Shown in pieces: positions 13,682 through 57,771 of a DNA stretch of 64,000 nt. Source of the DNA: Rozella allomycis CSF55 (Eukaryota); the NCBI GenBank assembly GCA_000442015.1, contig KE561161.1:1-64000 (forward strand), in the 5' to 3' direction. How positions within the stretch are numbered: position 1 is the stretch's first letter; every line of letters begins with the position of its first letter. The notes beneath the pieces were generated by a model. That model searched no databases, was not told where the DNA came from, and saw only the letters and a list, made by a program, of their open reading frames with translations. The translations under genes and the position numbers were made by a program.

Positions 13682-15640
13682 CTACAAGAAATCAGTTTTC
13701 TCAAAATTTTTCATGTTCCATTCTTTTATCAGTGTTTCAGGATCCTTTAAGAGGAATTCGGTGAGTCGTAGAGAAATATTGCCAAGTTTTCTCACATACC
13801 TTTTTAATCGCTAAAGACATTTTTACTTTGATGTTCTTTTGGATTGAAAGTATTTGGCTTTCTTTTTGAGCCATGGAATCAAATACAAATAGTTTGAAGA
13901 ATCTTCCACTGCATTACTGCTTTGAATAATTTCATTGTACTTAACTCTAAAGTCATCGCTTATTAATGACAAACAATATCCTTACCAACAATCTTTTTGG
14001 CATTTTTCAAAAATAACATCAGCCCATGTCACGGGCATCGAATTGCATGTCGCTAATGAGCAAAGTAGAATATTTTTAATGGTCAAGAATTCACTGATTT
14101 CAACACGATTAGAAGGTTCGTTTGGCAGGAAAATACTTTGTGTAAACTCTGGGAGTGGGTTTGTATAACATTCTGACTCTTGATAGAAGTTGAGATTTAA
14201 TTTTGAATCTATCAAAGATAGTTGTTCAATGTTCTCAAACTCTAAATTTTCCGATCCTGAGATTAGGGTTGATTTGAAGTCACAGTAGCGACAACGCTCA
14301 GGAATCTTTTTTGACAACTTGAACTTTCTAGTAGTCCTTAAAAATAAAAATTCCAATTGATTTATCGACTTTCTTAAATTAAAATTTGATTCTGCCAGGG
14401 TTGATAATGCTAAATCTTCGCCAATTAAGAAATCATCCATCAAGTACTCCAATTTCTGCCTCTCTGTCAATTTATTTAATTCAATGTAGCAAACATTATC
14501 GAGGCTGAGATTGCAACCCATTTTAACTAGACCTTCAAAGTTACCTACTTAAAATTGTTGTAAAATGGTACAAATAGATGTTAAGATTATTGGATGTTTA
14601 GAAGTACATGCAATTTGCCCAACCGCATTCCAAAAATCGGTGTCTCCGGTCATTAAAAGATCTACACTTTCCATTACGTAAACAGCGGAGCTTTGAAGGC
14701 TATCTTTGTGCCCAAACATTGTTGATTTTAAATGATTGTTCTGAATAGAGTCTCCAAGCATTGAAAGAATATTGCTTTTGGATCTAACCATGGAACAATC
14801 GATATTGACGATATCAAAGTTAAGCTTTGAAGCCACTCGTTCGATCAACGAAGTTTTTCCACATCCTTCAGGACCAGCTAAGAAAAGACATGGATAACTA
14901 AATTTCTTGCTAGTGAATTTATCAAATGTCCCAAAGTCATCCTCGAAATCATTCTCAGTGAAAAAATTAAATTGTTGGAATGATGATGTGTAATTTTCAT
15001 CAGCAGCGTTCGGATACATATGAAAAGGCCTTTTAATCTTTTTTTCACCTCTCCATTGAAGTATCCAATCTGACAACGCATCCTCTTCCTTTGAAAACCA
15101 ATTTCGAAACAAGTTTCGTCGGTCATTAACGTTAATATTTTCTTCAGTTTCGTCAAATTTAATTTCATTGTATCTAAACTCATCTCTAGACTCTGGTGCT
15201 CTTAAAGTCATTCGTTTCATTGATCTACATTGTTCCCAAACTGGTTCAATTGATGATTGTGTCGTAGATATAGCAGGAAAGTCTGGAAAATTCAGTTTCT
15301 TTAATGTGTCGCGTGTAAAGTATGGATCAAATGTATCTTCAACAGCCTTCTCTTTACCAACCTTCATTGCATTCCTTTGGCTCCTATCAAAAAATGGGTG
15401 AAGCCCAGCATCTACATTGACATTTCTAATGACAATTTTCTCTATGTTTTTTTCTATCTTTATCTTTTTTGTATCATTATCTGGAGGAACCTTTTTCTGC
15501 CTTTTCTTCAAATCAAAGAAGGGGTGAATCTTTTTAGGTGTTTCAATAACAGTAAAATCAGGATCCGATTTTACAGATGATTCATCTAATATTATATGAT
15601 CGCTCGATAGAATTTCTATCTCATCCAATTTTTTTGTCAT
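13682..15640 (-). CDS. ELG1: Elg1/ATAD5-like RFC large subunit (AAA+)
   Basis: Walker A GPEGCGKT, IDCSMVRS, VMESVDLL, SKHPIILT; 3 introns. Confidence 0.75.
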
Positions 15641-18594: not shown

Positions 18595-18675
18595 CGACAG
18601 CGACAGGATTTGAACCTGTGCGGGAAATCCCAATAGATTTCAAGTCTATCTCCTTAACCACTCGGACACGCTGTC
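18595..18675 (-). tRNA. tRNA-Ser(UGA)
   Basis: Cloverleaf with GACAGCG/CGCTGTC acceptor stem, ATAGA-CTTGAAA-TCTAT anticodon arm and long variable arm; T6 terminator follows. Confidence 0.95.
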
Positions 18676-21424: not shown

Positions 21425-23334
21425 TTAAAGTTTATTAAGTTCATTAACCAATCCATCAGTAAAATAATGTAGCTTGGATTCAATAGACATTCGATCTTTG
21501 AGATTGCCAACCATTTCACTGTAATACTTCACTTTTGGTTCCGTGCCAGACGTACGGAAAACAATCCATCCATTTTCAAGCTCAAAGTAAATCATCAATG
21601 ATGGAGAATAGTTTATAATCTTTTTAATTTTATATTCTCCCAAATATTCTTGTTTTTTTGACAGAAAATCAAATATTTGTGTTTTTCTTGAACGATCTTT
21701 GACTATTAAATAACCATTAGACGAAGCAAAGTATCCCAGCCTATTCATAAGAAAGAATTATCTTATACTCTTCATATATTTTGTCTAATTTATCAAAAAC
21801 ACTCAAGCCGGCAAAATGCAATTCACATAGCATCTGAAGGGCAGTTGATAGTGCACTAATCCCATCTTTATCTCTTACAAGATCAAATACCATAAACCCA
21901 ATCGCTTCTTCATATGCAAAAGGTACTCTGTATCCCTCCGATTCCAACTTTAATACTTCATTCCCAATGTATTTAAATCCAGTTAACGTTTCTTCATATC
22001 TATGTTCATTTTTAAGACAAAACGCTTTTAGCATTTTAGAAGAAACTATAGTTGTAACCATTGCAATTTGGCCTAAAAATCACCCGCCACATTAATTATT
22101 ACCAGGGCTGATCCTCTCCCTGTTCCTTAATTTCTCTACACAATAATATGCCAATAATATCCCAATTTGATTTCCGGAAAGAGTTTGCCAGTTGCTGTTT
22201 TTATCTTTGGCAGCTATCGCCAAGCGGTCTGCATCAGGATCATTTGCTAGAATAATCGAAGAATTATGCGATTCAGCAGTTTCTATCGCCAATTTCTTTC
22301 TATTAAATACGCCATGTATCTTACTAAACTTCCCTTTCCCTCCTCTGGATTGGGGTATTTCACTGTAGGAAAATCAGGGTCAGGTAAAACCTTTTAACTT
22401 TAACAAGTAACATTACCTGCTCTTTTACAGGTATTAAATATGGATATTTTATTGCTTTTAAAGCTTTTAAAATGTATTCATAGCCCACTCCATGCATTGC
22501 TGTGTATACTATAGGTAATTGTGGATAGGATTCTATGAAACGATACTTGCTCAGTCTTGAGAAATATTCCTTTGCAATCTGTTCCATTGGATCAACGCAT
22601 ATCGATGACTTTGTATATGCTTCATAATCCCAAGTTTCAGGCTCAAAATTGGAAATAATGGATTTAGCAATATCCTTGTCTGTTGGACTTACGATCTAAG
22701 AATTATCCATCAACCTTAATGGTATACCTGGCACCCATTATTCCAATACACTTTGTATCCATTATCCTCTTTGGGGTTATGAGAGGCCTTTGTTCAAGTA
22801 AAGCAAATAATTACAGTTATCATTATGCCACAAGCTGCTTTTAAAAATGTCACTGAAAATGGCTAACTAAATGAGTGTAAAATCTATTACAACAAAGGGG
22901 GTGGGACATATAGCCTGAAGCAAATATACCTTTACATTGTTTTTCAAAAAGACCGCGGTCGCTAATCTAGCGAAATCCCAAGAATGATGTCTATGGTCAT
23001 GACCAATAACTACTCCTTCACTTGTGATATTTTCCCTTGTTTTTATCAAGTGAGCACAAAGTCCCAAAGACATCAGCAAAAATATCTTACTTGAGTGGCC
23101 TGTATTATAGTTAAATCATTCATTCTATTAAATCCAGCACCCATAGATGCTCTTAATCCAGCAGTTCCAAATTCCAAATTAGTCAATAGTCTATCTTCAA
23201 GCTCGGGTAAATTCTTCTCATCTTTTGACAATAACTTTATTTCATTTAAAGTTATAGGATTCTTGAAAGCATTTATCCTGCAAATTTACTTTATCCAGCT
23301 TTAAATACAATTGCAAACGCTCGTCCAAAGACAT
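21425..23334 (-). CDS. PGM2: Phosphoglucomutase-2 / phosphopentomutase family
   Basis: FGTAGLRA, ITASHNP, YTAMHGVG, ANDPDADRL, FAYEEAIG, FRTSGTEPKVKYY; 9 introns, one of them GT-TG. Confidence 0.95.
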
Positions 23335-38297: not shown

Positions 38298-39622
38298 ATG
38301 AAATCGTTATTGTTTCTTACCCTTTTTAATTCCTTGGCTCAGAGTAGAATTTATTTCTCTGAAACATTTTCTGATAATGATGGATGGCAAAACCGTTGGA
38401 TTCAATCGACCAATGTAGATACTTATGGAAAATTCGAGAGGAAGTAATGTTATTTTAATACAGTTATCAAGCAATGGGCTTTTCCATGGTGATTATGAAG
38501 AGGCATATGGTTTAAGAACCTCTCAAGATGCAAAATTTTATGCGATAGCTTCTAAATTCAATCAAACCTTTGACAACAAGGACAAAGATCTTGTTGTTCA
38601 ATTTACTGTAAAGCATGAGCAAAACATTGATTGTGGTGGAGGTTACGCTAAGATTCTTTCATCTAAAGAAAATTTGTCAAAATTCAGCGGGGACACGACG
38701 TATTTCTTAATGTTTGGTAATGAACTCAATTGAATAAGAACAGGGCCGGATATTTGCGGAAGTTCTAGGAAAGTCCATGTGATAATAACGTACAAGGGAG
38801 AAAATAAGTTGATAAAACACGAAATAAATGCCCCTTCAGATGAATTAACTCATCAATACACCTTGGTTATTAAACCCAATCAAGTAAGAAGGTTTCTTTG
38901 CGATAATTGACTTTTAAAGTTTTGATTGATGGTGAAATCGTCCAAGAAGGGAATTTTCTGGAAAATTGGGATTTTCTCCCACCAAAGCAAATCCCAGATC
39001 CTGAAAAGAAGAAGCCATCGAATTGGGCGGACGAAAAAGAAATAATTGTAATTTGTTTTCATATATTTGAAAGGATCCTAATGACAAAAAGCCAGAAGGA
39101 TGGGACGATATACCACAAACAATTCAAGACGTGAATGCCGTTAAGCCGGAAGATTGGGATGAAGAATTAGATGTAATGAATTTCTTCTATATTGATTAGG
39201 GTGAATGGGAGCCACCTCAAATTCCGAACCCAGAATATAAAGGAGAATGGCAACCGCGACGAATCCCTAACCCTGATTACAAGGGTCCATGGGTTCAGCC
39301 AATGATTGATAATCCTGATTTTATTCCAGATGAGGAAATATATAGATTTAGTGACATGGGTGCTATTGGTTTGGATCTTTGGCAAGTCAAAAGCGGGTCC
39401 ATATTTGATAATTTTATCGTTACCGACAGTATTGAAGAGGCTCATGAATTCGGCAAAAACCACTGGGAAAAATACAAAAATGCCGAGAAAAAGGCTAAAG
39501 AGCAGCTAGATGAAGAAAATAGGAAAAAGCAAGCAGAATCGGCTCCTCAACAAGACGCATCTGAAGCAGAAGTCGGTGAAGAAATCGGCGAAGATATTAT
39601 TGATGAACATGAAGAACTTTAA
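38298..39622 (+). CDS. CALR: Calreticulin
   Basis: Signal peptide, TSQDAKFY, KHEQNIDCGGGY, MFGPDICG, P-domain repeats, GLDLWQVKSGSIFDN, C-terminal HEEL, no TM segment. Confidence 0.95.
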
Positions 39623-47867: not shown

Positions 47868-49305
47868 ATGACACGTCAATCAATAATCCGATTTGCTAAA
47901 CTTGCAGTTTTAATAGCAAGCGTGTTATCTCTTTATTTTTCAATTTCATGCATATATAGGAAGGAAGATTTTTATGCTGCTTCTGTCTCCTTCAAACGGA
48001 ATAAGTTAGCTTTCACGGTAAAGAATATGGATTCACATTAACTGTGCCTAATACTGACAATAGAAGGAGTATTATTTGGTTTTATGTATTCTCTTATCAA
48101 GATAATATTTGGATCTATAAGGTTAGTTGAAGAGGAGGTAAAAGTATACCTTGGAAATGATAGCACATATTTGAAGAGCTATCTGCTAGCATATTTCAGG
48201 GATTATTTGCGTTGACGATGTTTAGAAATTCTGTGAATAGTAGCGATTTCAATATTTTACTATGCGGTTTGTTTTGCTGGTCATGCTTCCATTGGATATA
48301 TCAACATAGATCTGACCTAATTGTCCAGGTACCGAATCTAGGCGTTACCTACCATGTAAAAATGGCTTCGGCAACTCTTTTGATAACATTTATCGATTTA
48401 AGTATCTTATTGTATTGTTTTGATCATTTGACAGAACATGGTGTTGATCTACACTTTTATTTTCTGTATAACATTTCTATTTTATTTGTTGGATTCATGT
48501 TTAATTTGACAAAATACGTTTTAAATCTTCTTGAGATGTTCAAACCAAATGAGTGGCATGACAAATCGCTTTACTTGTTCTATGCTGAGTTGGTGCAAGA
48601 TTTACTTAAAGTGATTGTTCTATGCTCCTACTTTTATATGGTAACCATCTCGTTCGGCCTTCCTCTCTATTTGATTCGTGATTGCATTTTCAGTTTTGCC
48701 AGTTTGATAAAAAAGATCAAACAATTGCTTAATTTCCATAAAACAATGAGAGATCTTCAAAATAGGTATTGATAATAATTCTATATTTTGAAAGGTACCC
48801 TGACGCAACCCCCGATGAATTGGCATCAGGCGACCGGGTTTGTATTATTTGCAGGGAAAACATGGACACAGCTAAAAGGTTATCCTGTGGCCATTTATTT
48901 CATTTTAATTGCTTAAGAAGATGGATTGAAAGACACAACGTTTGTCCCACATGCAGACAGCCTTTAGACTCTAGACCCGCTAATACAAATACTAATGCCA
49001 ACGAAAATAACGATATTCCAAATGCACCTAATAATACAAATGAAGAATTATTAAGAGCATTGCAAGAACACGAGAGAATCAGAGAGGTCCTAGACAACTT
49101 AAGAAATCGCCCCATTGGTGAAAATAACCAACGCGAAAGAATTCAAGCAAATTTAAACAATTTGATCGACGAAGAAGAACAAACTCGGCGTTATCTTGTT
49201 GCCCAAATTCAATACTTGAAATTCCTGAGTAACAGAGCGAATTCCATGATTCAAGACTATCATAGAATACAAGATGAGATTTTAAATAACCAAAATAATC
49301 AATAA
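47868..49305 (+). CDS. HRD1: ERAD E3 ligase Hrd1/synoviolin-like
   Basis: Multi-TM N-terminus, FGLPLYLIRD, YPDAT..DRVCIICRE..CGHLFH..C..W..CPTCR; the first intron is GT-TG. Confidence 0.88.
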
Positions 49306-49390: not shown

Positions 49391-51851
49391 ATGACTCAAG
49401 AAAAACCGATCTGGTTTGCACCAAAAAACGAAAAAGAACCAAGTGGTCTTCAAGTGAAAAATTCATTCAAGAATGAAAAAGTATGAAAAACATTTCTAGC
49501 TTATAGGTTCCTTTTGTTCCTCAACAGGGAAAATTGATAAAGTGGTATTCCTGTGGCCCAACTGTTTATGATGCAGCACATATGGGGCATGCTAGGACTT
49601 ATATTACCTTTGACATTATAAGAAGAATTTTAGAAGACTATTTTGGATATGATATATATTATGTTATGAATATAACAGATATTGATGACAAGGTTGGAAT
49701 GATTTGAATTTAACAAAGATTATTATAAGAGCACGTCAAAAATATTTGTTTGATGAATATTTAAAGAAAAACGTTACTTTGGAGGAATTAAAATCGGATA
49801 TCATGGAAGCCGCTAAATTTGTTGCAGAAAAGTATCTGAATTTAAAAGATTTAAAACAAAATGAATTAATTGAAAAAATATCTGCTATTATTTCCGAAGA
49901 TCCTAAAGTTTTGATGCATAAAAAGTCAATTCTTGCAGGCCTAACATCAAAAAGTCAAACCCCTGTCGAAATAGCTGAAGCCGCTAAAGACATTTTAACT
50001 TACTGGCTAGATGACAAAATGGGTGCATCTGTCACTGACATTAAAATATTTAGAGATCTTTCTGTCCACTGGGAAAAAGAATTCATGAAAGACATGGAAT
50101 TGTTAAATGTAAATAACTTGTTTAAAGTAGAAAAGGTTTTGCCATCTGATGTGTTAACACGTGTGAGTGAATATGTACCTGAAATTGTCGATTTTGTTCA
50201 AAAAGTGATTGACCATGGATTTGCGTAATTGATTTAATAATTTTCAATGAGTTACGAAGCTGATGGATCTGTTTATTTTGATACTCAAGCCTTTGATAAA
50301 GATCCCAACCATTCTTACTGCAAACTGAAGCCTAGTGCCAAAGGCAACGTAAAATTGATGGAGGAAGGTGAAGGATCATTGTCTTCACACACCTCGAGTA
50401 AAAAATCTCCAGCTGATTTCGCCCTTTGGAAAAAATCCAAGCCTGGCGAACCAGCATGGAACTCTCCTTGGAGCCAGGGTAGGCCAGGTTGGCATGTTGA
50501 ATGCTCAGCAATGGCTGGTGATGTTCTCGGCTCATGCCTGGACATTCATTCCGGTGGTATAGATTTATGCTTTCCCCATCATGATAACGAACTTGCTCAA
50601 TCTGAAGTAATTTGAATATGCCTAATTGACCAGGGTTTCTTTAACAATAAGCAATGGGTGAACTATTTCCTTCATGCGGGTCATTTGCACATTGAGGGAC
50701 AAAAAATGTCTAAATCACTAAAAAATTTTATTACTATAAGGGAAGCTTTGGCAAAATACAGCAGTCGCCAGATTAGACTGTTGTTCTTGCTTCATAGCTG
50801 GTCTGATGTTTTGGATTATAAAGAAAGCTCAATGAAAGAGGCTATTAATGTTGAGCAAACATTATTTAATTTCTTCTCTAATGTTCAAACAATCATTAGA
50901 GAGGTTTCTCTGTTGGATATTTCACAAAACAACGATCATGACTTTAGAAAGAAAGAAAAAGATTTGGTTGAATTGTAAAATATGATTATTTAATTAAAAG
51001 TTTATTGGATAGACAAAGTGACATTCACGAAGCGCTTTGTGACTCATTTAATACACCACTTGTTATGAGAGCGTTACTTGACATTATTTCTCAATGCAAT
51101 GTTTACATGAAAGAAACTCCAAAGCCTTCTGTTTATCCATTAAAAAAAAGTGCTGATTTTGTTACAAGAATTTGCAAAGTAAACAATAAAGTTAAACTAA
51201 AAAAAGATATTTGGGNTTAAATTAAAAAAGATATTTGGAGTGATTGAGACAAGAGGAACTATTGGATTTCCTGTCCAAACGTCTTCTTCCTCTCTTGAAG
51301 AAAGTCTAATTCCTTATCTTAATACTTTGGCTGATTATCGCGATAAGATTAGAGACTTGGCAATCAATAATGCAGATTCCAAACAATACTTGATATTGAG
51401 CGATAAATTAAGAGACGAAGATCTTTTAAATCTTGGAGTTCTTTTGGAAGACAGAGATGGCTCAACCAAAGTAAAATTGGTGGACAAGGATTTTGTCGTC
51501 AAAATGAGGCAAGAGAAAAAGCAAGTAGACAATTTTATCTTTTCATGATTTAGCGTGATGAAGAAAGAGAGAGAAATAAAGCTCTGGTGGCCGCTGAAAA
51601 AGAAAGAAAAAAGCAAGAAAAAATTGAAAAGGCAAAAATAAGTCCTAATGAAATGTTTAAAATTGGTGATTATAAAGACTTATTTTCAAAATTCGATGAA
51701 ACGGTAAAATTATTCACTTTTTTGTTAGAAGGGATTTCCAACCCATGACAACAAGGGTGAAGAACTAGCAAAATCAAAAACGAAAAAATTGAGAAAAGAA
51801 TTCGACGCGCAATTAAAACTTCATGATCAATACATAAATGGCACCCTTTAA
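49391..51851 (+). CDS. CARS1: Cysteinyl-tRNA synthetase
   Basis: [38 protein letters not shown]; 9 introns. Confidence 0.97.
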
Positions 51852-51879: not shown

Positions 51880-52787
51880 TTATGTTAATGTTGCTGTAGC
51901 ACCTATCCTTGCTTTCACTTGTGATGGCCCAGCATGGCTACTTAGTTGGAAGCTTCTCTTTCTCAATGTTTCCACCAATCCTCTTTCTGTGATTATTAAT
52001 AATTGATAAATAGCACATGTTGAAAGACACACAGTCAATCCGTGTTGACTAAGCAAACGATGAAAAATGGCCAATATCATGACAATGTTCACTATCAATA
52101 TCATAAACGAGCGAATGACAGAACTTTTGATTACAGCAACTTGAATCGGCGCTCCCACGTTCGATAGGTATTGTTTCGCATCATTCAGGTATTGTCGTAA
52201 TGATTGAATTGTCACAGTGGTTACAATGATATCAACAAGCATATCAATAACTACAAATGTGGTAAGAACATCAACATCCCACCCATACATACAAACACCA
52301 TCCATCATCTTGGCACCAGGAAAGACCAAATTCATAACACTGACAATTCCCCTAACGGCCACCGTAAAATAAGAAAACCACATAACATATTTGTTTTTAA
52401 AGCTTAAAAGTATCGCCCGGTANCGACGATTCCTCTAACCGCCACCGTAAAATAGGAAAACCACATAACATATTTGTTTTTAAAGCTTAAAAGTATCGCC
52501 CGGTAAAGGAGCAGATAGTCTATTCCCATCATCCCCATGCTTTCCAAGAAATTGGCTATTCTAACCGTTGTATCGCAATCAAATGGATATACGCCTTGAA
52601 ACACAACTATGACTAATAGAGCCCATGAAGCAAACGAAAATGAAGAAACTACTTTGGTGTATGTATCAAGTGTCCTTGATTTTTGAGCAAGAACAGTGAA
52701 CAAAGAATATACAAACAGAATTAAACTTACAGTCAACAAAAACATAGCTGACATCAAGATTTGCACAACAGAAATCGGATATGTCAT
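51880..52787 (-). CDS. Orphan 7TM-like membrane protein
   Basis: About 7 hydrophobic segments after collapsing the duplication at N52423; intronless. Confidence 0.65.
52344..52505. repeat. Tandem duplication around N52423 (probable allelic artefact)
   Basis: About 80-nt copies with several SNPs. Confidence 0.85.
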
Positions 52788-52835: not shown

Positions 52836-52907
52836 TTCCGCATCGGGGAATCGAACCCCGGCCTTTGCGGTGAAAGCGCAAAATCCTAGCCACTAGACCA
52901 ATGCGGA
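52836..52907 (-). tRNA. tRNA-Glu(UUC)
   Basis: TCCGCAT/ATGCGGA acceptor stem, TTGCG-CTTTCAC-CGCAA anticodon arm, GGTTCGATTCC T-arm. Confidence 0.95.
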
Positions 52908-52909
52908 TG

Positions 52910-54032
52910 TTATGTGTTATTTATTAAATATTTCAATCTTTGAAGGGCGTAAGAGTAATAGTCAAAAGTCATTCCTTTTTGTTTGTTAGCCAGCAAAAAA
53001 CCCCATATGCACCAAAATAGATGAGACAAAGGCACAAAACTCATAACTATCAAATCGAATTGTTCAAGTTGCACGTTTTCTTTTTCTTCAAAGTATGCCC
53101 GGTAAAAGTTGTATCGTTCTTCAAGAGAAGGAAACAAATTTTGATGGAGAATGTGGGGATTTTCACTGTCATAGTTGGCCATCCATTCACAAAAGTGGTT
53201 TGCTATATCATATTCCCTTTGTGCAATTAACGAATATTCAAAGTCGATTAGCATCAAGTTTTCATCCTCATCACAAAGAATGTTCCCATATTGAAGCTAT
53301 TCGTTAAATATAAATTAGCCATTACATCACCATGAATAAGACAGGTTTGTTCATCTTCATAGGAGTTTTCCAGTTTCATCTTTAGCTCTTTCAATTTATT
53401 ATCAATGATTTCTATGTGATTTTGTTCAAGATTCTGATTTGAAAGTAGTAGCGTGTACCATTTGTCCAGTTGACTCCAGATTTGAGTGCTTTTCTCCTTT
53501 ACCTCAACACAATGTAATATGCGCAACTGCTTTGCTATTTTCTTTGAAATACCTGGCTTGCGCATATTTGATGGCGTCAAAGGTGCTACTCCTTGAATGT
53601 ACTCCTCCACACGACCGAAATCAAAAGCTGCCAGAATGCGGGGCATCAACCCTTTTGCAGAAATTTTAGAGGCCAATCTCACTTCTCGACTTCTAGATAT
53701 TAAATGAGTGGTGCCGCTGCCGTAAAATCTAATTAACAAGGGTGAACTATTGCTGAAATGGCAAACAAATACAATGTTGCTCAATGCTGCATCTAGACGC
53801 TCCACAGAGATGATTCCAGCTGACTGATACTTTGGAACATGATTAATTATATTTTGAATTTCATGAATTGTTGGTATATGTTCGATACCTGGACTTATCT
53901 TACATTGACATCACTTTGTTACTCCATAATAATCGGAGTGGTTATATCTTTCTCAGTCACATCATATACATCGGCATTGGCTATAGCATCGGTTAATTTT
54001 TCTTTGCTATCATAAAATAATGGTATAGTCAT
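52910..54032 (-). CDS. Choline/ethanolamine kinase
   Basis: LLIRFYG, GRVEEYI, HGDLQYGNIL, IDFEYS, DIANHFCEW, SHLFWCIW. Confidence 0.93.
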
Positions 54033-54142
54033 GTTTTGACGATTGAAGCTTATTTTTGAAGCCTAATTAATGAGACTCGCTTTTGATTGAATCAAGACAT
54101 GTAATGGTTATCTTTATTAAAAAGTCAAGATAATAATTTATT

Positions 54143-54295
54143 TAGACTTTCCGTTGGTCTAGTGGCTAACCATGATGCTTACGGACGTCTAGGTGCATGG
54201 TTCGATCCCCATCCATGTTTCCGAATTTTCTGGGGTTTTCAGGTTGAGGCAAGGTTCGACTCCTTGGTGATTTTGACGATGTGGATCCCTCATCC
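54143..54295 (+). ncRNA. tRNA-Glu-related Pol III-type structured element (ncRNA, SINE or tRNA relic)
   Basis: A box TGGTCTAGTGG, two B boxes (54199, 54253), several hairpins, no complete cloverleaf. Confidence 0.5.
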
Positions 54296-54511
54296 TTAAT
54301 AAATACGATTATTCAAATAACTGTATATATTTAAAATATAAAAAAAAAAGATTGTTCTTTAAAACTTCCAGCGGAAAGGAATGAACCATGAGGACATCTT
54401 GACATTGAAATTCACGTCAAAAATAAACTCGCAGAAACGCAAAAAAATAATATTTATGTGATTCATCTATAATTAATAATGTTATAATAACATAAATGTA
54501 CCCCTTCTTAT

Positions 54512-55455
54512 TTATTGACTAGGCTGTATATTCGATTTCGGTTTTCTGGGAATAGGTGGTGCGTATTGATATCCCATTGATGGATTTGCCATTGATGAAT
54601 TTGCATTTATAGCCATATTTGGAAACTGCATCGAATTAGGATGAATGTTGCCTATGGCAGGATTACTGACAAACCCTTGATTACTAGGAATATATTGTTG
54701 ATATGGGATGTGCTGATTCTGCAACTGTGAAGGGGGTGGTTGAGCTGTATAGGGTTGAATCGGTAAGTTTAAGGTAGTTTGATTTTCTAAAGGCATATCT
54801 TTCAAAGGAGCAGATTCAGCTGCCGTTAAATTTTTATCGATAACTTCTGTTTGTTCGATTTCAGGAATAAATTTTTCTATTCATATTGCACAAATTACAT
54901 ACTTATANCAGAACTTACATACTTATATCTTCGGAGCTTAATGGGTGGATGGTATTTCCTAGATTTTTCGGTGGTTCTTTTTCCTCTTGTCCTGACAAAG
55001 ATTGAATGTTTGATAACTCACGAATGAAGTAATCAGCCAAAAATCGTATTTTTTCTAATGAGGGAATTAGGGTGTTAATTGATTGTTGGTCTTGCAAGTC
55101 AGATTTACTTGAATCTGTTGAGTAAATATATAATGTTTACCTTTCACGATTATATTTAATTTGTTCATAGTTAACAGTGCATGCTGTACGTCGTTGTCGT
55201 CTGTCAATAGAATTAAATCGCCATCACTAAAAAAGAGGGCTCAGATATTACCTTCATCTATATAATTTAACTGGTAATTTTCTGGATTATCAGATAAATC
55301 TCTTTTGAATAAACGTTGCATAATGAAGCAAAGTTCATTGTAGGTCTATTTTGTCTGAAATTAGTGGTTACCAAATCCTTATTACATAAAGAGACACGCC
55401 TAAATGTGGAGCCAAATCGTGCTTTGATAGTTACCATACAATCTCCTCCCTGCAT
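54512..55455 (-). CDS. TFG: TFG-like protein (PB1 + coiled coil + P/Q-rich tail)
   Basis: Spliced IKARFGSTFRRVSLCNKDLTYNELCFIMQRLF...YIDEDGDLI matches the TFG PB1 domain as I recall it; one GT-TG intron. Confidence 0.8.
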
Positions 55456-55668
55456 TGTTATAACCAAAGAAATAGGTGGCGTTGCGAACTTCTCGATATC
55501 CGAGAACATAAATATGGATAAAGAAAGTTGACATGTATAATAAATGTAAATGCATAAATAATTTATTTTAAGAGCTTAAAATCATAAAAGAATTGGAATG
55601 TTCAAGGATGAAAAGGATCCACGTCTTTGGCGAAGATTTGGACATCTGGTTAGAATAAAAAGAAGCAT

Positions 55669-57612
55669 TTACTTGATCAAATCCAAATATTGAGCCTTTT
55701 CATAAGCTTCCAACATATCAAGATGAATTAGGCAATCATGGCAATCGCAAATACCTAACTCCTCCGATAAATCTTCAAGCGCAGTTGGATCTTCTTCGTC
55801 GACGCTAGTGGCTGCATCATCAGTGATTGATTTTTCATCAAGGTCTGAAGAAGAATTTTTATCGTCGACTCTTTCATCAATTTCCGAAAAAAGAGTTTCA
55901 GTTTCCTTTGTTCCATTTTCACTTTCTTCATCAGATCCATTTTCGCTCTCATCTTTAGAATTTGTTTCACTCTCACCATCGGATTCTTCTTCAGTTTCCT
56001 CGTCAGAGACTTCTTCTTCGTCTTCGTCAATTTGGCCATTTTGATATTTCACAATTAAATCTTTCCAATGAATCAAATCTTCATTTCTATCGATAAATTC
56101 CATAAAATTTTCTCCATAGACGTTTCTCTTTGTTAATGCGTCTGGGCACAAATCGAGAATCATTTTGAAAATCTTTTTGTCTGCGGAATACGTGTTCAAA
56201 GCCATGAAGAATAAAGGAGAATGATTAAAAGACATACTTTCTTTAAGTGATTCTCTCAATTGTCTCTTAATCTCATTATATCCTTCATAGCTTGTTTCAT
56301 AAATTGTAATTAAAAAATTGAACTCATTATCTATCAAGAGCTTTTCAAGGATACTAAATGGTAAATTCTTTTTGAAATTTAAGGTAAAGAGATTACAAGA
56401 GAGCATTGAAGCCGCCTCTGCGTATTTTTTCTCATTAATGGCATAAAAGAATACATTTAAATAATTTTGGTCGTTTCCGTATCTAAATAATTCGACGTCT
56501 TGCTTTGCTTCTTTAAATCCAAGTAAGATCTCCTGCACGAGTTCATTCGAGTAATATTCACTGTCAATCGCTAAATGGAGCAACGAATTTATTCCGTTCA
56601 TAATCGATAAGTCTGGATAATCTTGTATTACGCTCGAAATAATTTCATAATTTTGCGATTGAACAACAATAGCAGGGAAGGCCATGCAGTCACCATCAAT
56701 GTTGAACATTAAGTATTCACTCTTAAGTGGAAATCGTTTTCTTAGAGCATTATAAAGTTTGACGTTCTTTACGTATGATATCTTTAGGTAAATTGCTCTG
56801 ACTTTTTCTAGTAAAATTTCAGAATTATCTTTAAGTTTCAGACCCGACTTTTTGAGTTGATCATTATTCGACAAATATTTATTTGGAAGTTTTGGTATTT
56901 CATTTATCAAATAAGTAAATTTATCGACTTCGATATTCATAATAGAATCAATCAAATTGTATGACAATAGAGTTGTTGGTAATTTCTTTTTGCAACCTAA
57001 TTTCTTTCTTGAAATTCTCTCATTCTTTTTAAATAACTTCATGAATTTGTTATCTTTTTTATGCATTGATTCTGCATATTCTGCCAAAGTTTGGCCATTG
57101 GGAAGTACACTGTCATCTTCAATAATATTCTTCTCCATAAGAAAAGATATGATATCTTTTCTATGCTTTTTTGATTTCATCGCTTTCGTAACAATTGTTT
57201 CCCCTGACATATCCGAAACGAAAAATAACCAGTGATCATTTGACTTTGTAAATTCCACCAATAACTTGAATGTATTAATTTGATCTTTTTCAATAGCTAG
57301 AGCATAATAAGTCATAAATTTGCTTGGTTCTCTCAGGTACAAAGTATCATATTGTCGTCTCAAGATCTGTCGTATCACATCAATATTTTTATCTCCACAC
57401 TCTACCAATGAAGAAAAATAATCATTTTCATAGTCTTTCCCACTTTCAGCAAATTTGTAACGGGCAAGATCTTTGAGTGTACCTTCATTGTTTAAAATGG
57501 CTTTTTTGGCACTGATATTGTTTTGCTCAACAGTTTCAAAATCCGCCAAAACCTTGAAATCGAGCAAGGTTGAAAATACGAACGAAGTTAGGCAGAAAAA
57601 AAAGTACCACAT
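55669..57612 (-). CDS. Secreted intronless protein with degenerate ankyrin-like helices and acidic tail
   Basis: Signal peptide MWYFFFCLTSFVFS; GETIVTKA, GQTLAEYA, SLLHLAI, YGENFM; D/E-rich C-terminus. Confidence 0.7.
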   Translation of the reverse strand: MWYFFFCLTSFVFSTLLDFKVLADFETVEQNNISAKKAILNNEGTLKDLARYKFAESGKDYENDYFSSLVECGDKNIDVIRQILRRQYDTLYLREPSKFMTYYALAIEKDQINTFKLLVEFTKSNDHWLFFVSDMSGETIVTKAMKSKKHRKDIISFLMEKNIIEDDSVLPNGQTLAEYAESMHKKDNKFMKLFKKNERISRKKLGCKKKLPTTLLSYNLIDSIMNIEVDKFTYLINEIPKLPNKYLSNNDQLKKSGLKLKDNSEILLEKVRAIYLKISYVKNVKLYNALRKRFPLKSEYLMFNIDGDCMAFPAIVVQSQNYEIISSVIQDYPDLSIMNGINSLLHLAIDSEYYSNELVQEILLGFKEAKQDVELFRYGNDQNYLNVFFYAINEKKYAEAASMLSCNLFTLNFKKNLPFSILEKLLIDNEFNFLITIYETSYEGYNEIKRQLRESLKESMSFNHSPLFFMALNTYSADKKIFKMILDLCPDALTKRNVYGENFMEFIDRNEDLIHWKDLIVKYQNGQIDEDEEEVSDEETEEESDGESETNSKDESENGSDEESENGTKETETLFSEIDERVDDKNSSSDLDEKSITDDAATSVDEEDPTALEDLSEELGICDCHDCLIHLDMLEAYEKAQYLDLIK

Positions 57613-57697
57613 GGTTCAAGCCACACAAAAGCAATTGCTTTTTAGGGGCGGCATAAAGTTTCCATTTAAACATTTATTCAAATGATAACATTCATCA

Positions 57698-57771
57698 GCT
57701 CCCATAGCTCAGTTGGTTAGAGCGTCGTGCTAATAACGCGAAGGCCGCAGGTTCGACCCCTGCTGGGAGCA
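57698..57771 (+). tRNA. tRNA-Ile(AAU)
   Basis: GCTCCCA/TGGGAGC acceptor stem, TCGTG-CTAATAA-CGCGA anticodon arm, T5 terminator. Confidence 0.95.

Follow-up and report, generated by a model that had tools for sequence, protein, structure and literature searches.

The introns of Paramecium, of Stentor and of chlorarachniophyte nucleomorphs are ultra-short and of tightly fixed length, and we know of no regular non-AG 3' ends in any of these genomes. Few rules of gene structure are as firm as the AG that terminates U2-type introns, and a TG has been accepted only as a rare alternative beside an AG. In a study of human TG 3' splice sites (Szafranski et al. 2007, PMC2374985), such sites are reported in 36 genes, always as alternatives to an AG within 28 nt, with a preference for a pyrimidine at position −3 and for a purine at position +1 of these TG-AG tandems. 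The study proposes an early step that depends on the AG, after which the TG can be selected; it also reports that human mutations from AG to TG activate other AGs, with no splicing at the TG (PMC2374985). Constitutive GT-TG introns are not known to work in humans.

For the fungal parasite Rozella allomycis, two papers give introns of about 30 nt in the S23 gene (PMC6349667) and an intron density of 2.5 per kb (PMC8476143). In the literature on the introns, splicing and spliceosome of this organism, taken without the original genome paper and the supplements, we found TG-ended introns nowhere described. Here we have analysed a stretch of 64,000 nt of R. allomycis CSF55 DNA, which we refer to throughout as the window, with attention to a candidate intron that ends in TG in a TFG-like gene. 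The features of this gene are as follows.

54512-55437, minus strand: coding sequence of the TFG-like gene; 5 exons, N-terminal PB1 domain, P/Q-rich tail.
55437, minus strand: start ATG, assumed; the public model begins 24 codons farther upstream.
55346-55371, minus strand: intron 1; 26 nt, GT..AG, with an internal AG at 17 nt unused; frame and homologue alignment continuous.
55252-55345, minus strand: exon 2; encodes TYNEL..NYIDE and ends one base into the following codon.
55225-55251, minus strand: candidate intron of 27 nt, GT..TG; assessed by frame, profile scores, a chance control and DNA contigs.
55227-55229, minus strand: TAG skipped by the 27-nt form; the 25-nt form is frameshifted (71.9 bits).
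55201-55251, minus strand: intron of the public model (protein P0002), 51 nt, GT..AG; in frame, deletes 8 residues.
55201-55224, minus strand: first 24 nt of exon 3; DGDLILLT with the G of exon 2; intronic in the public model.
55141-55224, minus strand: exon 3; alone matches the PB1 profile at 51-77, E 0.0072.
55115-55140, minus strand: intron 3; 26 nt, GT..AG.
54923-55114, minus strand: exon 4 of the TFG-like gene.
54877-54922, minus strand: intron 4; GT..AG, 46 nt in the window and 26 nt without the 20-nt duplicate.
54889-54908: 20-nt assembly duplicate in intron 4; contains an N, absent from all three DNA runs.
54512-54876, minus strand: exon 5; P/Q-rich tail and stop.
54512-54514, minus strand: stop codon TAA of the TFG-like gene.

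The read-through of exons 2 and 3 matches the Pfam PB1 family (PF00564) with 23.7 bits (cut-off 23.6) and an E-value of 4.8e-5, and the best solved-structure match of the gene product is 'Protein TFG', a weak one (E 0.13). The single database protein that matches this read-through is P0002, 'hypothetical protein ROZALSC1DRAFT_24279 [Rozella allomycis CSF55]'. When P0002 is aligned with the product of the 27-nt model, 255 of 258 aligned residues are identical, and there is in addition a gap of 8 residues, DGDLILLT; since P0002 lacks precisely this peptide, it must have been built on the 51-nt GT..AG intron at 55201-55251. A gap resembling that of P0002 is seen in the alignment of a distant relative, P0005. 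A scan of metagenome contigs with P0002 for the loci of relatives gave 109 pattern matches, none of which was confirmed.

On the minus strand the donor G of the candidate intron is at 55251 and its last base at 55225; the 27 nt run GTAATATC...TTTTTTAGTG between exon 2 and exon 3 and interrupt the gene in phase 1. An initial annotation of this DNA had described GT..TG letters at this place with a TAG only 2 nt upstream, and the letters are indeed so arranged: the TAG (55227-55229, positions 23-25 of the intron) follows a run of T, the TG (55225-55226) occupies positions 26-27, and the AG ends 2 nt before the end of the intron, so that a strong pyrimidine run and a TAG stand directly upstream of the TG. 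The donor, AAG/GTAATA, follows the GT rule and is typical of the genome, and the length falls inside the intron class of the window, which peaks at 26-29 nt. At the 3' end of the in-frame form there is a TG in the place of the terminal AG, with a G at position −3 (GTG) and an A at +1. An identical mRNA is obtained if the 27-nt intron is drawn one base leftward, as GG..GT.

The two possible 3' ends have very different consequences for the product, as calculated from script-spliced coordinates. Removal of 27 nt yields ..NYIDE/DGDLILLT.. in an open frame, and in this respect the PB1 motif DEDGDLI predicted by the initial annotation is recovered as an in-frame, gapless acidic motif; removal of 25 nt at the TAG, as a GT..AG intron, yields ..IDEVMAI and then a stop, that is, a frameshift terminated after 5 codons, again as had been predicted. 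The 27-nt length is a multiple of three and the intron contains an in-frame TGA at 55241-55243, so that translation through the unspliced intron is impossible.

U12-type (minor) introns are characterized by a long 5' motif, [AG]TATCCTT, together with a TCCTTAAC-like branch site. The 27-nt intron has no U12-type features: it starts with GTAATATC and contains no TCCTTAAC-like branch motif. Its distribution of A is unusual in that none occurs between positions 12 and 23 (4-15 nt from the end), whereas in all 48 canonical introns of the window the nearest A is 2-8 nt away from the 3' end. Because of this A-free stretch, the branch point would lie at position 11 or else at the A within the skipped TAG. 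The 3' half of the intron contains no A other than the latter, and this A may be the branch point, which would explain why the AG of this TAG cannot serve as splice site.

To place the different splice forms in the context of the TFG family, a full scan of protein representatives was carried out, which returned 40 relatives; the 22 complete ones make up the profile. The family alignment is gapless across the junction (..KYxDE-DGDLIxxxD-DxDIxHA..). The forms score as follows.

27 nt, GT..TG: 108.3 bits, gapless against the 22-homologue profile.
27 nt, AG..AG, 5' cut moved 2 nt upstream (DDDGD): 106.6 bits.
24 nt, TA..AG, 5' cut moved 1 nt downstream (DEGDGD): 102.1 bits.
51 nt, GT..AG, public model: 80.5 bits.
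Unspliced: 73.2 bits.
25 nt, GT..AG: 71.9 bits.

As a control for chance, the 24 nt that follow the TG were swapped for shuffles of themselves or for random 24-mers of the window, and only stop-free trials were retained: a score of 108.3 bits was reached by none of 1614 shuffles and by none of 1938 random 24-mers (mean 88, sd 4). Judged by the profile score, by this control and by the PB1 match of exon 3 taken alone, the 24 nt downstream of the TG are coding, which would make the public model wrong, or a minor form at best. In 11 of the 40 relatives the sequence reads ..DEG, after which the similarity is lost; this is what is expected if a phase-1 intron in the corresponding position had been read through, and the alignment thus suggests that this intron position is probably old in the TFG family.

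The letters of the intron site can be compared with those of independent DNA assemblies. Contigs from three DNA runs (X1, X2 and X3, from three studies), which may share one strain of origin, span the site with a depth of about 270 (X1), 14 (X2) and 300 (X3). Within the TFG-like gene their sole gap, at 54889, is the 20-nt assembly duplicate. From 55152 to 57724 the X1 contig differs from the window in 10 letters; since all 10 differences are placed elsewhere, X1 and the window agree in every letter of the intron. The X2 and X3 contigs have no indel at the site; a substitution is possible there, as 13 and 4 differing letters, respectively, fall outside the rows listed. An indel near the junction had been named in the initial annotation as the error that could bring the TAG into frame, and none is present in the contigs of X1, X2 or X3. 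From a metatranscriptome, X11, three short and poor pieces were obtained, none of which comes from the TFG-like gene.

The window contains 8 single Ns, three of which (51216, 52423, 54908) sit at assembly duplicates. The 20 nt at 54889-54908 are missing from all three DNA runs, 24 nt at 51216 from two of them, and the 83 nt ending at the N of 52423 (52341-52423) are skipped by all three. Gene models across the remaining Ns (1867, 37429, 37553, 60725, 61014) may also suffer.

The DNA runs carry two haplotypes, and both the TAGTG state and the intron are common to the two. Among the variants of the coding sequence that are listed, 7 of 12 are synonymous; downstream of the 27-nt intron the count is 6 of 11 listed variants, compared to 22% expected (binomial P = 0.0185), a test that covers 12 listed variants under a uniform mutation model, with 66 rows of the DNA-run comparison lying outside those listed. 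This synonymous excess, together with the presence of TAGTG in both haplotypes, suggests that the downstream frame was constrained while TAGTG existed, and it modestly supports translation of exons 3-5 in the 27-nt frame with the TG in place. In the region 54500-56000 about 1% of positions distinguish the haplotypes, both of which are present in X1 at 54776-54848. Eight of the differences are clustered at 55939-55965, where the neighbouring ankyrin-repeat gene encodes its acidic tail.

Some additional features were noted in the vicinity of the TFG-like gene and elsewhere in the window. Directly downstream of the gene, at 54146-54348 on the plus strand, lies a 203-nt element with a tRNA-like head (box A-like and box B-like motifs, recognized by eye) and a tail made of an A-run; the word depth of the bin 54009-54342 is about 100-200 times that of the flanks. 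All three DNA runs have contigs without the element, with TTTTT in its place, and the element looks like a polymorphic SINE insertion. Neither ARAGORN nor Rfam calls a tRNA on it, and a plasmid search with the 203-nt repeat gave no match. The tRNA genes of the window are the following.

18595-18675, minus strand: tRNA Ser-TGA.
52836-52907, minus strand: tRNA Glu-TTC; raised depth in its bin.
57698-57771, plus strand: tRNA Ile-AAT; raised depth in its bin.

The raised depth in the bins of tRNA Glu-TTC and tRNA Ile-AAT suggests that these are multi-copy genes.

How unusual a skipped AG and a TG end would be can be judged from the intron population of the window. When GT..AG candidates are counted with the requirement of at least 30 open codons on either flank, there are 24, 27, 23 and 21 of them at 26, 27, 28 and 29 nt, respectively; off this peak the counts fall to 10 at 25 nt, 7 at 30 nt, and 0-9 at lengths of 12-24 and 31-38 nt. 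If only strong donors (GTAA or GTAT) are considered, there are 48 unambiguous introns, all of 26-31 nt. Introns longer than 31 nt are rare, and most long candidates just enclose a short intron. In the 95 candidates of 26-29 nt an A or a G precedes the GT, which is mostly followed by A, A; a G at position −3, as in the TFG-like intron, is found in only 7 of these 95 AG introns.

At the lower edge of the length distribution no intron shorter than 26 nt could be established in the window, and none is unambiguous in the strong-donor set. The well-formed 25-nt candidates all have an in-frame alternative at 28 nt (4 of 4; three end in AG and one in TG), and the 24-nt candidates have one at 27 nt. 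For one of the four, at +44275, Pfam fits 25 and 28 nt alike; for the other three no Pfam family matches both flanking exons. In-frame pairs of AG 3 nt apart (24/27 or 25/28 nt), which resemble NAGNAG tandems, occur, for example, at +14163, +36508, +51704, +35596 and +2861, and at 14548-14571 on the minus strand. Unused AGs at least 18 nt from the donor are present in 13 of the 48 unambiguous introns. GT..TG candidates, taken together, are not enriched at 26-29 nt (6, 4, 4 and 4), and in the lack of such a peak TG ends would be a small minority, about 3 against some 70 AG introns under similar filters.

Three further introns of the window, two of which end in TG, bear on the TFG-like case.

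22296-22324, minus strand: 29-nt GT..AG intron of a PGM2-like gene; TAG at 25 nt passed over, Pfam PGM_PMM_II continuous across both exons.
38884-38909, plus strand: 26-nt GT..TG intron of a calreticulin-family gene; phase 0, ends in TTG.
23065-23090, minus strand: 26-nt GT..TG intron of the PGM2-like gene; phase 0, ends in TTG.

In the first of these, the form with length (L) of 29 nt, which ends in AAG, is gapless and scores 118.4 bits versus 32.4 bits for the frameshifted form with L=25; since the TAG at 25 nt is skipped here, an AG passed over at exactly this distance exists beyond the TFG-like gene. At 38884-38909 the Pfam PF00262 match of the upstream exon stops at 174 and that of the downstream exon begins at 175; L=26 is the best length and is gapless against two homologues, and the lone AG in the vicinity, 36 nt from the donor, would break the frame. 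A search with the exons of this calreticulin-family gene found two distant proteins and no Rozella model. At 23065-23090 the full-length PGM2-family profile gives 156.1 bits (gapless) for L=26 versus 149.3 for L=23 and 145.4 for L=29, and the first 55 nt from the donor contain no AG; a solved-structure search with the PGM2-like exons returned 0 hits and 1 weak hit. As judged by frame and family profiles, both introns must end in TG. They differ from the TFG-like intron in that the latter ends in GTG, with a T run and a TAG upstream, and they end in TTG.

The TG-ended introns were sought with a crude, donor-anchored screen of the window, in which no intron requiring an end dinucleotide other than AG or TG was found. 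Three donors considered for the lack of an in-frame AG (+17458, −20979, +47070) turned out to be canonical, with a 26-nt GT..AG intron and a short exon, or to have the wrong phase; a 27-nt TG candidate at +5452 is probably antisense or at a gene start, as judged by eye. A 27-nt GT..TG candidate with an in-frame TAA is also present at 48018-48044 on the plus strand, in a membrane-protein-like gene with open flanking frames and no family match. No family match was obtained for the TG candidates at +37332, −10617 and −40531.

On balance we consider it probable, by some distance short of certain, that 55225-55251 is a real 27-nt spliceosomal intron and that at least some transcripts are cut at the TG to give the productive mRNA; both the use of the TG as splice site and its share of the transcripts are read here from frames and homology. 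Three features of the intron point against TG use: the textbook pyrimidine run with a TAG at 25 nt, the G at position −3, and the atypical distance of the branch A. The missing class-wide enrichment of GT..TG candidates, the nearly equal scores of the shifted boundaries and the behaviour of the human AG-to-TG mutants also weigh against it.

One alternative is that the TAG at 25 nt is truly used, in which case the frameshifted mRNA would represent a recent pseudogene or encode a stub of ~58 residues, and the downstream fit to the family would be a relic. A GTAAT donor, a pyrimidine run and a TAG speak for the 25-nt form, and 25-nt candidates do occur in the window (10), though each well-formed one has the in-frame 28-nt alternative mentioned above. 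We nevertheless regard this alternative as unlikely: the downstream exons are all open across two more canonical introns, synonymous changes are enriched downstream (6 of 11 listed, P = 0.0185) with TAGTG in both haplotypes, the strong-donor set contains no unambiguous intron shorter than 26 nt, and the PGM2-like gene passes over a TAG at the very same distance.

It is quite improbable, in our view, that the canonical 51-nt GT..AG intron (55201-55251) is the one spliced and that the protein really lacks DGDLILLT. This form ends at the first in-frame AG at least 26 nt from the donor, keeps the frame and was chosen by the annotation pipeline, but it fits the family profile less well by 28 bits, leaves the product devoid of the core of the acidic PB1 motif, discards 24 nt encoding a family-typical peptide that scores far above chance, and belongs to a length range (>31 nt) that is rare in the window. 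Very improbable, too, is the use of the AG at 25 nt with a displaced 5' cut, as an AG..AG intron of 27 nt or a TA..AG intron of 24 nt; although both forms are in frame and come close to the 108.3 bits of the GT..TG form (106.6 and 102.1 bits), the GT that they disregard lies in AAG/GTAATA, which matches the donor consensus of the window, 24 nt is under the length band, and no intron met in an unsystematic look through the window needs a start other than GT. Finally, an assembly or base-call error hiding a true AG at intron positions 26-27, or an indel, for which one could invoke the 8 single Ns of the window and the assembly duplicates that three of them mark, is extremely unlikely given three DNA assemblies, possibly all of one strain, with no indel, the letter-identical X1 contig at a depth of about 270, and a public model, built on a different assembly, in which no 27-nt GT..AG intron is drawn, as would be expected if there is no AG there.

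If the 27-nt GT..TG intron is the productive form, the 3' cut would have to fall within a narrow range of distances from the donor, about 26-30 nt, and AGs closer than 26 nt would go unused. Within the band a final G would be required, and the base that precedes it would usually be A, with T tolerated. A nearby AG may still aid early recognition, as suggested for the human TG-AG tandems, and the 25-nt form may also be produced and then lost to decay. In the initial annotation this locus was taken as the clearest case in which length overrides the AG rule. That idea survives in a restricted form: the narrow band of 26-30 nt, the TAG skipped at 22296-22324 and the two further TG introns are in agreement with it, but GT..TG candidates form no peak as a class, and TG ends are exceptional (about 3 in 70). 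The broader reading, in which the cut is placed 26-30 nt from the 5' site, nearer AGs are ignored, and about 3 of some 70 tiny introns of the window have TG as their sole 3' end and would then be constitutive GT-TG introns, is one that we put forward tentatively and would not insist upon.

Were this distance-based reading true, public gene models based on GT-AG would be wrong at every such intron, as in the TFG-like gene; annotation that insists on GT-AG mis-models genes of this kind, and the public TFG-like model loses the core of the PB1 interaction motif. The three homology-anchored TG introns in 64 kb, two of them with no fallback AG, would also represent a natural system for the study of 3' site recognition at the second step, and the organism could show how far 3' site choice rests on distance as opposed to sequence.

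These results can be compared with the systems described at the outset. As in the human TG-AG tandems (PMC2374985), the TFG-like intron is a U2-type GT intron that ends in TG with an AG near, 2 nt upstream versus the human limit of 28 nt, and the A at its position +1 fits the human preference; unlike in those tandems, its position −3 is a G and the TG is the putative productive site. The TFG-like, calreticulin-family and PGM2-like introns are 26-27 nt long and the human ones hundreds of nucleotides, and the introns at 38884-38909 and 23065-23090 fall outside the human tandem picture because they have no usable partner AG, so that the TG would be their sole site. With NAGNAG and other tandem acceptors the TFG-like intron shares two candidate 3' ends a few bases apart, but its spacing is 2 nt and not 3, and its second member is a TG; as a consequence of the 2-nt spacing, only one of the two ends keeps the frame. 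In length there is a likeness to the ultra-short introns of Paramecium, Stentor and the chlorarachniophyte nucleomorphs: here too introns form a sharp band (26-30 nt), and the 27-nt intron is a multiple of three that carries an in-frame stop.
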